Part shown: positions 9,122 to 15,377 of the stretch, piece by piece
Layout of the letters: every line of letters starts with the position of its first letter
Numbering within the stretch: position 1 is the first letter of the stretch
NCBI GenBank assembly: GCA_025937895.1
Contig: JAICQL010000009.1
Location: forward strand, 6,896-70,895
Length of the DNA: 64,000 bases
From: Polyangiaceae bacterium
GTDB lineage: Bacteria > Myxococcota_A > Polyangia > Polyangiales > Polyangiaceae
Direction: 5' to 3'
Program-made: the position numbers and the translations under genes
Notes under the pieces: model-generated
What the model was told of the DNA's origin: nothing
Database searches by the model: none
Seen by the model: the letters and a program-made list of their open reading frames with translations, nothing else

Positions 9122-9367
9122 TCAGTAGCCCACGCTGCGAGCGCGGCGCTTGACCTCGCCGAGAAGCATATTGGCAAAGCCATCTGCGATGGCCTTGGCG
9201 CCATCGACGAAGGCACCGCCCACGGCCTTGGCGCCATCGGCGATGGTTTCGCCCACGGCCTTGAACCCGTCGCCGATGGCGTCGACGATGCCGCCCAGAA
9301 AACCGCCCTGAACCGCGCTCAGCTCCGCATCTGAGAGCTCGCGACCGAGGTTGTCAAACTTGCTCAT
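9122..9367 (-). CDS. Double-glycine-leader bacteriocin-like peptide A (81 aa)
   Basis: MSKFDNLGRELSDAELSAVQGG | FLGGIVDAIGDGFKAVGETIADGAKAVGGAFVDGAKAIADGFANMLLGEVKRRARSVGY. The leader is a canonical LSxxELxxVxGG. AGAGGA lies upstream of the ATG. GC3 is high. The core has about 11-aa internal repeats (DGxKAxG). Confidence 0.8.
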   Translation of the reverse strand: MSKFDNLGRELSDAELSAVQGGFLGGIVDAIGDGFKAVGETIADGAKAVGGAFVDGAKAIADGFANMLLGEVKRRARSVGY

Positions 9368-9702: not shown

Positions 9703-9867
9703 ATGAAGAACCACGATGCACAGCAGACCGAGTCCGAGCTCTCCGACGACGTGCTCGCGCACGTCACCGGCGGCGCAGCGGGCGTGGCCCAGCCCCAGGG
9801 CCCCATCTTCCCGGGTGTTGACTTCGACTACCCGAAGAAGCCGATCGACCCCCGCGACATTCGCTGA
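9703..9867 (+). CDS. Double-glycine-leader peptide B (54 aa), Pro-rich core
   Basis: This is the internal ATG (M24) of ORF 9634..9867: MKNHDAQQTESELSDDVLAHVTGG | AAGVAQPQGPIFPGVDFDYPKKPIDPRDIR. GC3 is high. Confidence 0.7.
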   Translation: MKNHDAQQTESELSDDVLAHVTGGAAGVAQPQGPIFPGVDFDYPKKPIDPRDIR

Positions 9868-13156: not shown

Positions 13157-13448
13157 CGCCGGGCGCACCGGCAGCTCGCCAGCGGCGTACCCGCTGGCGG
13201 CGCACCACTGGCGGCATTTCGTATCTTCAGTACGCAACCACTCGTCACGAGCGGACGACACGGGGGGAGGCGAGGGGGGCGGCTTCGTGGCGAAGGCCTC
13301 GGAGCGGTGCTGGGCATGCTCTGCGGTGCAGAAAGCTGGAGAGCGCTGGCCTCCCAGGCGAGGGCACGCCATGCCCAGGGGGGCGGCAGGCGTTGAGCTT
13401 TGGCTGGCAGCAGCGGCGGTATCGCTGAACCCTCAACGATCCCGCCAG

Positions 13449-13531
13449 TAGCCCCTGCCGGGGTCGAACCGGCACGCCTGTTAGGGCGAGGGATTTTAAA
13501 TCCCCTGCGTCTGCCATTCCGCCAAGGGGCC
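13449..13531 (-). tRNA. tRNA-Leu, anticodon UAA
   Basis: The minus strand reads GGCCCCUUGGCGGAAUGGCAGACGCAGGGGAUUUAAAAUCCCUCGCCCUAACAGGCGUGCCGGUUCGACCCCGGCAGGGGCUA. It has an anticodon loop UUUAAAA, a long variable arm, a GUUCGAC T-loop and an A73 discriminator. CCA is not encoded. It closely resembles E. coli tRNA-Leu(UAA). Confidence 0.85.
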
Positions 13532-13680
13532 AGAGCGCAGCACTATCCCAGCGTTGGCGGCGAGTCCAGCGCCTGCAGGCGGCTGCGCTGCAGCCCCGGG
13601 CCCGGGAGATTCCGCTTGCCTTTGCGCGGCAGCCCGAGCGCGTGCGGGCAGGGTGGGCGCGGCGGAAGCCGCCAGTGCGC

Positions 13681-13710
13681 CGGCGTCTCGCGGCGTCTCG
13701 CGGCGTCTCG
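13681..13710. repeat. Perfect tandem repeat, 3 x 10 bp (CGGCGTCTCG)
   Basis: Read directly. It lies in the 454-bp region between tRNA-Leu and peptide C. Confidence 0.9.
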
Positions 13711-13740
13711 GGCGTGGGCCGCACTGTGTCGCAGACGCGC

Positions 13741-13782
13741 GCGACGGGCTGCATGCTCGGCGCGACGCGCTGCATGCTCGGC
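13741..13782. repeat. Tandem repeat, 2 x 21 bp (GCGACGSGCTGCATGCTCGGC)
   Basis: Read directly. There is one mismatch between the copies. Confidence 0.9.
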
Positions 13783-13985
13783 GACAGTGAAGCGAGCGAG
13801 CGCCCTGCACCGCTGGTAGGAGTTCTGTGCAGCGCGCTGTTCGCGGCGCGCTGGACGGCGCGGCTCGCCGCCTGCCAGGGGAGCTGTTGCATCGTGTTTT
13901 TGCGCAACTCCAGCGAGCGATGGCCCGACTGGAGTCGTACATGGGCGGCAATGGAGTTCGCCCGCCAACGAGGAAGAACGATCAC

Positions 13986-14213
13986 ATGAACAACAACGAA
14001 TTTGTGGGCGTGGAGCTGTCGGATGCAGAGCTGGCGTCGGTCCAGGGTGGCGGTTTCTTCGGCGACGTGTGGGACGGCATCAAGAAGGGCGCCAACTGGG
14101 TGAAGAACGCGGCGAAGGACGCCTACGAGTGGGCCACGGGCGATGGCAAGGGCATCGTGAGCGCGGGCGTGGCCATCGGCACTGCGATCTTCGCGATCGA
14201 GCGCAAGTACTGA
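13986..14213 (+). CDS. Double-glycine-leader bacteriocin-like peptide C (75 aa)
   Basis: This is the internal ATG (M54) of ORF 13827..14213, with AGGAAG upstream: MNNNEFVGVELSDAELASVQGG | GFFGDVWDGIKKGANWVKNAAKDAYEWATGDGKGIVSAGVAIGTAIFAIERKY. It is a paralog of peptide D. Confidence 0.8.
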   Translation: MNNNEFVGVELSDAELASVQGGGFFGDVWDGIKKGANWVKNAAKDAYEWATGDGKGIVSAGVAIGTAIFAIERKY

Positions 14214-14552
14214 AGACGAACCCCGAACGAGGGACACTGCTCCAGTGCGAGCTGGAGCTCGAAAAACCCATCGCTGGTGGCGAACCATCAATGAAATACG
14301 GCACGGAACAGTCGCCCCTCTCGAGCAGGGGCGGCTGTTGCCTCGGGCCAGCAGCGTGGTGAAGCACAGGGCTCGAGCGGGTAGCTCGAGCACGTGGCCC
14401 GACCATGGTGAGCAGCAGGACGAAGCCCCCGTGATTGCCTGAATGTGGCGATCATCGTGGGGCTTTGGAGCGTTTGTCATTCCGCGGTGTCGCCGCCGTG
14501 TCTCCGGCACTCGGTGGTGGCGCGAGTGGTGATGCGCGATGCGCGGGCTCTG

Positions 14553-14605
14553 GTGTTGCATCGCCATCTGGAGCGCGGGCAATGATGCAATGCTAGATGC
14601 AACAC
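14553..14605. promoter_or_regulatory. 10-bp perfect inverted repeat GTGTTGCATC...GATGCAACAC upstream of peptide D
   Basis: The arms are at 14553-14562 and 14596-14605. An extra GATGCAAT half-site lies between them. The element ends 79 bp upstream of the peptide D ATG. Confidence 0.35.
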
Positions 14606-14683
14606 GAAACTGGATCGCTCGCTGCGCCGATAGGCCCGTACCTGGCGGCACTGGGTCGCCGGCGAACGAGGAAGAAGAGCACA

Positions 14684-14938
14684 ATGAGCAACAACAACGG
14701 CTTTGAGCAGGTGGGGATCGAGTTGTCTGAGTCCGAGCTGGCGCTGATCCATGGCGGCGGCTTCTTCGGCGATGTCTGGGATGGCATCAAGAAGGGCGCA
14801 AACTGGGTGAAGAATGCCGCGGAGGACGCCTACGATTGGGCCACGAGCGACACCGGCAAGAAGGTGCTCACCGGCGCAGCCGTGGTGATCGGTGCCATCT
14901 TCGGCGGCAGCTCGGGCAGCAAGAAGAGCAGCTACTGA
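14684..14938 (+). CDS. Double-glycine-leader bacteriocin-like peptide D (84 aa)
   Basis: This is the internal ATG (M30) of ORF 14597..14938, with AGGAAGAAG upstream: MSNNNGFEQVGIELSESELALIHGG | GFFGDVWDGIKKGANWVKNAAEDAYDWATSDTGKKVLTGAAVVIGAIFGGSSGSKKSSY. Confidence 0.8.
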   Translation: MSNNNGFEQVGIELSESELALIHGGGFFGDVWDGIKKGANWVKNAAEDAYDWATSDTGKKVLTGAAVVIGAIFGGSSGSKKSSY

Positions 14939-15090
14939 GCGCCGTCTGGCTCGGCACGAGTCGGCATACCGCTGCGCGGCACAGGCATCCATGTCGCGAC
15001 CCGGCCATTACCTTGGGGCAAGACAGTCGCCCTCCTGGTTCGCACGTTTTCGCCGGTGCGCTCTTCTCTGGAGCGCACCAGCGCTTCGCG

Positions 15091-15170
15091 CAGCGGGGCG
15101 CGGCTGTCACGCGATAGGATAAACAGCGGTGCGGCTGTCACGCGACGGGGAAACAGCGGGTGGCTGCCAC
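15091..15170. repeat. Roughly 31-bp tandem repeat, about 2.5 copies (CAGCGGnGCGGCTGTCACGCGAnnGGnAAA)
   Basis: Read directly. It lies about 130 nt beyond the 3' end of tRNA-Cys. Confidence 0.7.
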
Positions 15171-15302: not shown

Positions 15303-15377
15303 TGGAGGCGAGGACCGGATTCGAACCGGCGTATGGCGGTTTTGCAAACCGCTGCCTAACCACTTGGCTACCTCGCC
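15303..15377 (-). tRNA. tRNA-Cys, anticodon GCA
   Basis: The minus strand reads GGCGAGGUAGCCAAGUGGUUAGGCAGCGGUUUGCAAAACCGCCAUACGCCGGUUCGAAUCCGGUCCUCGCCUCCA. It folds as a cloverleaf, has a GCA anticodon, and encodes CCA. Confidence 0.9.

Follow-up and report, generated by a model that had tools for sequence, protein, structure and literature searches.

Class IIa (pediocin-like) bacteriocins combine a conserved N-terminal module with a variable C-terminal helical module, the latter setting target specificity. In class IIb bacteriocins such as lactococcin G, neighbouring genes encode two distinct, unmodified peptides, each with a double-glycine (GG) leader of 15-30 residues and a helical, amphipathic and hydrophobic core with GxxxG motifs, and both peptide genes stand in the same operon, in which an immunity gene is required (PMC2850506). 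The class II microcins of Gram-negative bacteria are unmodified peptides of less than 10 kDa with a double-glycine signal (PMC12219008; PMC9746304), and in the verified cases a small membrane immunity protein is encoded immediately adjacent (PMC12219008). Here, we describe a two-gene cassette that invites comparison with these systems, found in a 64,000-nt stretch of DNA (the window; contig JAICQL010000009.1, G+C content of 69%) from the metagenome-assembled genome (MAG) of a Polyangiaceae bacterium (GCA_025937895.1, 8.57 Mb in 425 contigs; hereafter G000). The host is an uncultured, Gram-negative soil myxobacterium and, judged by RecA, its nearest genomes are MAGs that carry the label Polyangiaceae or Deltaproteobacteria. 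The cassette encodes peptide C (open reading frame (ORF) 13986-14213, plus strand, 75 aa) and peptide D (14684-14938, plus strand, 84 aa). It is somewhat probable (about 55%) that C and D are an unmodified peptide pair of the class II bacteriocin or microcin kind, exported by a peptidase-containing ATP-binding cassette transporter (PCAT) and possibly acting as a two-peptide unit. We find that the genes are real, occur as a pair, and are conserved, subject to purifying selection and represented in RNA libraries; their leader is of the PCAT type and exporters with catalytic motifs are encoded in the genome.

Like a class IIb pair, C and D are two different, unmodified peptides encoded side by side, with GG leaders of 22 and 25 residues and amphipathic, hydrophobic cores with GxxxG motifs, whose helices are predicted at low confidence. 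There is also a weak but recurrent similarity, running through the leader and the first core residues, to the models of lactococcin G alpha and beta and to the 2jpj chain (E 0.76). Over the superfamily, sub-threshold Pfam/NCBIfam matches were obtained to lactococcin G beta (19/37), lactococcin G alpha (11/37) and Bacteriocin_IIc (11/37). However, the producer is Gram-negative whereas class IIb bacteriocins are Gram-positive, the C and D genes lie 470 nt apart with their own ribosome-binding sites (RBS) and a hairpin between them, and C and D have neither a linked exporter nor the immunity gene present in class IIb operons (PMC2850506). The predicted cores after GG cleavage are longer (53 residues for C and 59 for D, ~5.6 and 6.1 kDa), C and D are paralogs with one shared head, and both fall below the cut-off of all curated models. 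The class IIb analogy is reasonable because C-type and D-type peptides always occur together and in the same order. A preliminary description of this DNA, made from the letters alone, had already likened the two peptides to class IIb pairs, and the likeness stands as far as this constant pairing and order are concerned, but not with regard to immunity, and it is doubtful with regard to the 470-nt spacer with its own RBS and hairpin.

Compared with the class II microcins, C and D have the same Gram-negative setting, GG signal and unmodified peptide of less than 10 kDa, and export would likewise be expected via a PCAT-type type I system (PMC12219008; PMC9746304), which in microcins combines a PCAT with a membrane fusion protein and TolC; PCATs are encoded in this genome, unlinked to the cassette. 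They differ in having no adjacent small membrane immunity protein and in that the exporters are on other contigs, and family scans of C and D returned no sequence similarity to known microcins. A siderophore-microcin (class IIb microcin) was considered on account of the Gly/Ser-rich end of D and a GT1 gene 5 kb away, but this was dropped as a tRNA and unrelated genes lie between. With the class IIa bacteriocins, the likeness is an analogy of architecture only, in that a conserved front module is followed by a variable tail; C and D have no YGNGV box, disulfide or sequence relation to that class, and their head would be a long amphipathic helix. A membrane-active, Trp- and Gly-rich amphipathic helix also forms the N-terminus of nicomicin-1, an animal antimicrobial peptide (PDB 6hn9). 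Positions 26-53 of the family profile align to its residues 1-28 without significance (E 0.15) and, the source organism being unrelated, the likeness would be convergent if real. The GG-leader peptides that are made by ribosomes and modified after translation (lanthipeptides and others) differ in that the C/D cassette holds no modification enzyme gene beside either peptide gene and the cores have no cysteine; matches to lantibiotic models covered the leader only and were below the cut-offs.

The properties of the peptides are consistent with export and membrane activity. Both cores have a pI of ~8.3 and a net charge of ~+1, the hydrophobic moment of the head is 0.5-0.6 and the mean hydrophobicity of the tail is 0.5-0.6. 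As GxxxG motifs, both heads contain GIKKG, the C tail GVAIG and the D tail GAIFG. AlphaFold2, run with a 37-sequence alignment, predicted with low confidence helices in the leader (13-19), head (25-51) and tail (57-74), with a break at GDGKG. When the family profile was searched against the PDB, it matched the leader of CtA, a substrate seen bound to PCAT1 (E 0.012), and a PDB search with the C core alone gave chance matches only. Four full-length C39-ABC exporters (PCATs) with intact Cys and His motifs are encoded in G000, all on other contigs. The nearest ESM Atlas clusters carry the name bacteriocin (scores 0.83-0.86), which is a lead only.

The preliminary description had counted 8 synonymous and 3 non-synonymous differences (K/E, E/D, G/S) between C and D in the 32 codons from the second leader glycine, and this count was reproduced exactly. 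By the Nei-Gojobori method, the block has Sd/S of 8/19 and Nd/N of 3/77, giving a dS of 0.62, a dN of 0.04 and an omega of 0.065, with a marked difference between synonymous and non-synonymous sites (Fisher test, p = 6.6e-5). Third codon positions hold 9/11 of the differences (binomial p 0.0014), and the in-frame G+C content at third positions (GC3), 0.88 for C and 0.87 for D, is similar to that of the real genes of the window. The purifying selection first proposed for the shared head is thus upheld, and orthologs with a whole-gene omega of 0.29-0.53 support its extension to the whole of both genes, as judged from codon comparisons. The RBS context (AACGAGGAAGAA) is conserved and the C-termini diverge after the shared block, both as initially described. 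Nucleotide identity between C and D amounts to 76% in the ~50-nt 5' region including the RBS, 73% in the leader and 90% in the head, whereas the flanks are 54% identical at -100 to -51, 54-59% further upstream overall and 49% in the 100 nt downstream, against a baseline of 52 +/- 4% for random 50-mers of the window. The similarity is therefore confined to the 5' region, leader and head, with the flanks at the random level, which rejects a recent neutral duplication.

An independent soil-metagenome DNA contig from another study (X2; X-labels denote contigs from sequencing runs) covers 13833-15092 and spans both genes with 0 coding differences, so the arrangement is not an assembly artefact. It differs from the window at 13 positions in 13837-13921 and at one in the spacer. 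This upstream segment, 65-150 nt before C, is hypervariable between strains (13 substitutions and 1 insertion in 85 nt), as seen in two independent soil DNA runs, in one of which both coding regions are identical. A further soil run (X4) holds a diverged D allele over 14684-14893 with 19 differences in 210 nt; its leader has M-V-Q before GG where D has L-I-H, a shift towards the Q of other D-type orthologs. Soils therefore contain more than one strain-level variant of the cassette.

Orthologs came from searching 1.84 billion representatives with a profile and a 5.8-billion collection with an alignment, and lie on short soil metagenome contigs; pattern scans of metagenome contigs, and of genome contigs with a peptide alignment, gave no orthologs. 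With L-labels for metagenome or genome contigs and P-labels for individual peptides, the loci are L058 (C-type P0005, D-type P0067), L059 (C-type P0068, D-type P0006), L146 (C-type P0070, D-type P0071), L147 (D-type P0072) and a JGI contig with C-type P0003 and a cut second gene 424 nt downstream. The C-type gene precedes the D-type gene in four loci (G000, L058, L059 and L146), and the reading frame is intact in all nine orthologous ORFs, which carry neither frameshifts nor stops. The two outcomes that would have spoken against the preliminary description, broken frames in orthologs and conservation running on into the flanks, are thus both absent. The lineages carrying the cassette differ by a dS of ~0.45-0.6. 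The contig of L059 starts with the same tRNA-Leu and those of L146 and L147 end in the same tRNA-Cys as found in G000, so the unit tRNA-Leu/C/D/tRNA-Cys is orthologous across lineages. That the two types constantly occur together, and in one order, across these sequences argues for a functional link between them.

Leader identity is 82-91% among C-type and 65-87% among D-type peptides, compared to ~64-73% between C and D within a locus, and tail amino acid identity is 50-75% (C-C), 64-70% (D-D) and 12-29% (C-D). A tree of leader and tail splits the C and D types with 100% bootstrap. With leaders and tails grouping according to type, the tails represent two old types, each conserved separately, and the idea in the preliminary description of "diversifying toxin alleles" has to be given up. 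The heads of C and D are 93% identical within G000, compared to 72% in L146, 50% in L059 and 45% in L058, and the G000 heads are only 59-76% identical to those of their own orthologs. Gene conversion between C and D (concerted evolution), acting beyond continuous constraint since the duplication, is a tentative explanation for this near-identity, one that we consider possible but not the likelier account. A head-segment tree in which the C and D types are forced to be monophyletic is also disfavoured, by 9.7 log-likelihood units (approximately unbiased test, p 0.041), while leader and tail split by type; however, the Kishino-Hasegawa and Shimodaira-Hasegawa tests are not significant (0.069). 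The dS between the C and D heads (0.60-0.66) is comparable to that of the leader (0.8) and no smaller than that of orthologs (0.3-0.5), so any conversion would be old. Copying from C is not needed either, as the long head is the ancestral form, being present in the outgroup peptides P0004, P0007, P0010 and P0012. In L058, L059 and L147, the D head is short owing to a deletion of 7 codons. A Sawyer-type run test was significant for every C-D pair, cross-genome pairs included, and thus provides no evidence of conversion specific to G000. Overall, the comparisons suggest some exchange between the C and D heads in G000 and, going by their codon differences, both head copies have accepted almost only synonymous changes since any such event. 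Conversion bears on the history of the heads only and leaves the selection result unchanged.

Near-identical sequence occurs in 15 or more DNA runs from soil, rhizosphere and compost, belonging to several studies, and in four RNA-type runs. In a soil metatranscriptome (X16), the contigs on a 1761-nt stretch correspond to 13956-14167 and 14678-15003 only, both 100% identical, and cover the C and D genes with the 470-nt spacer and the upstream region uncovered. A contig from rhizosphere RNA-Seq (X18) covers 14026-14318, from inside C to a conserved element of ~80 nt (CCATCGCTGG..GGCGA ... CGGCACGGAAC) that ends in a GC-rich hairpin of 12-14 bp. This element is found at 14262-14345 in the window, L059:880-985, L058:1187-1280, L146:1036-1140 and L147:590-690, being placed after C in G000 and after D in the other four loci. 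Its stem is kept across loci, with only one-sided changes and no compensatory pairs, and a U tract is lacking. A terminator is the probable role, although a different RNA or a protein-binding element is conceivable. A promoter and terminator scan of the GC-rich window DNA gave nothing useful, and a candidate sigma-54 promoter upstream of C and D was rejected by eye for unsuitable spacing. The spacer between the genes measures 295-470 nt across loci, each gene having its own conserved RBS and 5' region; in G000, the presence of a separate RBS and a hairpin within the 470-nt spacer speaks against a single operon. C and D are probably separate transcription units.

This organization bears on the possibility that C and D are sub-functionalised duplicates, each an independent single-peptide toxin active alone, with tails aimed at different membranes or receptors. 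The separate RBS and 5' regions, the hairpin after C, the long spacers and the separate RNA contigs would all fit such toxins, as would the related peptides P0007 and P0012, which are solitary genes. Nevertheless, we regard independent action as rather unlikely considering that the C-type and D-type genes are always together and in the same order across lineages separated by a dS of ~0.5. The RNA contigs of C and D are also similar in depth, which is a poor measure of expression.

Returning to a bacteriocin-like or microcin-like pair, the steps that we infer beyond the genes themselves are cleavage and export, fold, membrane activity, antimicrobial function and cooperation of C with D. Each peptide would be translated as a precursor with a GG leader, and one of the four unlinked PCATs would cut after GG and export the unmodified core. 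On the membrane, the core may fold as a helix-turn-helix, in which the Trp/Phe-rich amphipathic head would lie in the membrane interface and, following a Gly/Asp turn, the Gly/Ala-rich hydrophobic tail with its GxxxG motif would insert and pair with another helix. The two tail types would then present two different inserting helices on the same head. The most likely action is that, like class II bacteriocins and microcins, the pair makes the membranes of competing or prey cells permeable, perhaps as a two-peptide unit. A shared GxxxG head and two GxxxG tails could allow helix-helix pairing as proposed for class IIb (PMC2850506).

Several points weigh against C and D being such a pair. The AlphaFold2 model has a predicted local distance difference test score (pLDDT) of 56.7, which is low confidence. 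No curated family in the Pfam and NCBIfam scans reached its cut-off for C or D, with the best scores for NF038034, NF038035, TIGR03949 and PF10439 being 18.2, 16.9, 13.8 and 14.2 bits against cut-offs of 37, 37, 21.5 and 27.1. No immunity gene or exporter was found in the cassette or on the orthologous contigs, and no ORF other than frame shadows of the peptide genes is conserved in the spacer or flanks across five loci. The missing immunity gene might be explained by an intrinsically insensitive producer, for example one whose targets lie outside its own group. More distant relatives that share the head and have a hydrophobic tail occur singly, next to unrelated genes. The RNA evidence consists of assembled contigs of metatranscriptome libraries, in which DNA carry-over is possible, but carry-over would not favour the genes over the spacer.

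The lack of an immunity gene would be readily explained if C and D were not toxins but secreted signalling or social peptides, such as pheromones, kin-recognition cues or surfactant-like molecules. In the genome, some ten GG-leader peptide genes lie dispersed and away from exporters, which would suit such a role, and pheromones figure among PCAT substrates (PMC7018657). However, the cores, with 53-59 residues and a predicted long amphipathic helix followed by a hydrophobic one with GxxxG, fit membrane-active peptides, and no sensor kinase or regulator is linked to C and D in the cassette. Known GG pheromones are also much shorter than these cores, and we consider a signalling role improbable. 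That the ORFs are non-functional, arising by recent neutral duplication or as chance open frames in GC-rich DNA, where many spurious ORFs do overlap the region in other frames, is scarcely credible and is already contradicted by the synonymous excess, the in-frame GC3, the nine intact orthologous ORFs, the flanks at random identity and an RNA-library presence limited to the genes.

C and D thus form a new family outside the curated models, although bacteriocin-like secreted peptides as a kind of system are already well known. Myxobacteria are a main source of natural antibiotics, and in the literature searched we found no study on ribosomal, unmodified GG-leader peptides from this group. The cassette is small, well-defined, conserved and present in soil RNA libraries, with products short enough for synthesis or laboratory secretion. 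If the peptides are active, class II bacteriocin/microcin biology would extend to the Myxococcota, one head on two tails would constitute a natural head/tail swap experiment, and the absent immunity gene would need explaining, for example by targets outside the producer's group. If not, they would indicate that social bacteria employ PCAT export for some other purpose.

The interval between tRNA-Leu(UAA) and tRNA-Cys(GCA) in G000 contains the C and D genes and no others (Table 1). Among 401 genomes of the order, C and D are present in G000 only, with more distant relatives in one genome of the same genus (G006). Neither gene was found at the tRNA-Cys/tRNA-Leu site in the 8 same-genus genomes examined, where the gap between the tRNAs measures 92 bp in G009 (L051:14760-15010), ~530 bp in G005, ~880 bp in G006 and 9.1 kb in G013, and none of these four gaps holds C or D. 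This varying width, together with the absence of C and D in relatives, indicates that the site is a variable insertion hotspot in this genus and the cassette lineage-specific. Att-like tRNA fragments sought in the spacers gave chance-level matches only.

Other contents of the site were also recorded. In the G006 gap (L050:1571-3157), the tRNA-Cys is duplicated with a 186-aa ORF between the copies that by eye resembles a Uma2-type endonuclease, and a fragment adjoining the tRNA-Leu resembles by eye a tyrosine recombinase. The G013 gap (L053:172-9297) is a 9.1-kb insert with a 447-aa ORF, HNH-like by eye; a weak match there was rejected as a peptide gene as it lies inside this ORF on the opposite strand. 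The non-coding flanks of the G000 cassette (13680-13710, 13739-13780 and 15097-15145) contain short direct repeats: three copies of GCGGCGTCTC, two of a 21-nt unit and two of GGCGCGGCTGTCACGCGA. The GGCGCGGCTGTCACGCGA copies, spaced 31 nt apart, look like the 3' arm of the conserved hairpin element, of which they may represent a decayed copy downstream of D.

Table 1. Features of the C/D cassette and its tRNA borders, in window coordinates.
Feature	Positions	Strand	Evidence
tRNA-Leu(UAA), left border of cassette	13448..13531	-	ARAGORN; C-type gene of metagenome contig L059 has the same tRNA upstream
Conserved 5' leader region of C, RBS AACGAGGAAGAA at 13967-13978	13936..13985	+	76% identical to the stretch before D; kept in orthologous loci; RNA contig X16 starts at 13956
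Peptide C double-glycine leader, residues 1-22, ...ELSDAELASVQGG	13986..14051	+	82-91% identical among C-type orthologs; GG-leader family matches below cut-offs
Peptide C head, residues 23-51, predicted amphipathic Trp-rich helix with GIKKG	14052..14138	+	93% amino acid identity to D head, omega 0.05; AlphaFold2 helix 25-51, low confidence
Turn of peptide C (GDGKG) and hydrophobic C-type tail containing GVAIG, including the stop codon	14139..14213	+	Tail type kept in P0070, P0068, P0005, P0003; ortholog tail omega 0.24-0.62; AlphaFold2 helix 57-74
Conserved element ending in GC-rich hairpin (14309-14337)	14262..14345	+	After C or D in five loci; no U tract
Conserved 5' leader region of D, RBS AACGAGGAAGAA at 14665-14676	14634..14683	+	Similarity to the stretch before C; RNA contig X16 starts at 14678
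Peptide D double-glycine leader, residues 1-25, ...ELSESELALIHGG	14684..14758	+	Signature EQVG.EL..SELALI.GG common to P0071, P0006, P0067, P0072
Peptide D head, residues 26-54	14759..14845	+	Long form, as in P0071; 7 codons missing in three further D-type orthologs
Turn of peptide D (SDTGKK) and hydrophobic D-type tail containing GAIFG, including the Gly/Ser-rich end and stop codon	14846..14938	+	Tail type kept in four orthologs; ortholog tail omega 0.31-0.52; RNA contig X16 covers 14678-15003
tRNA-Cys(GCA), right border of cassette	15303..15377	-	ARAGORN; same tRNA-Cys sequence downstream of the D-type gene at the ends of L146 and L147

Beyond the cassette, the profile search returned a wider, unnamed set of GG-leader peptides with a shared core start, G-[FWIL]-[FL]-G-D-[AV]-W-..-[VI]-K, and tails that are hydrophobic, proline-rich, composed of amphipathic repeats with a basic aromatic end (as in peptide A of the window) or short and polar, the last of these following leaders judged Bacteroidota-like. 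The distant relatives with hydrophobic tails, P0007 and P0012, have unrelated neighbours and, being solitary, indicate that pairing is special to the C/D clade and no rule of the wider family. It is conceivable, although we think it unlikely, that the head (GG, G-F-F-G-D-x-W-x-x-[VI]-K ...) is a portable module of a large superfamily, reaching from Polyangiaceae to Bacteroidota-style leaders, with interchangeable tails. If so, these would be peptide-scale polymorphic toxins in which the head serves delivery or membrane docking and the tail killing or targeting; the tails would comprise hydrophobic GxxxG, proline-rich, amphipathic Ala/Gly/His-repeat (with a basic aromatic end) and short polar forms, with C and D as two variants kept side by side. 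Six members (P0016, P0021, P0026, P0031, P0034 and P0052) carry a GFFGDxW head with strongly proline-rich tails (PxP repeats) that resemble proline-rich antimicrobial peptides, which suggests tail swapping on a common head.

The GG-leader peptide genes of G000, about ten in number, are scattered over its contigs. Those of the wider family include C163:11899-12126 (L003:1486-1716), C77:12502-12663 and, in the window, 9122-9367 (minus strand) and 9703-9867 (plus strand); one of these scattered genes has the head GLLGDAWNWVK and a His/Pro-rich end, and none adjoins an exporter or immunity gene. A second paralogous GG-leader pair lies at C20:3065 and 3671 on the minus strand, ~5 kb from a PCAT gene at C20:8413-10611. 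These peptides have glycine/arginine/tryptophan-rich cores and an Asn/Thr-rich end, and no other GG peptides were found close to an exporter in the assembly.

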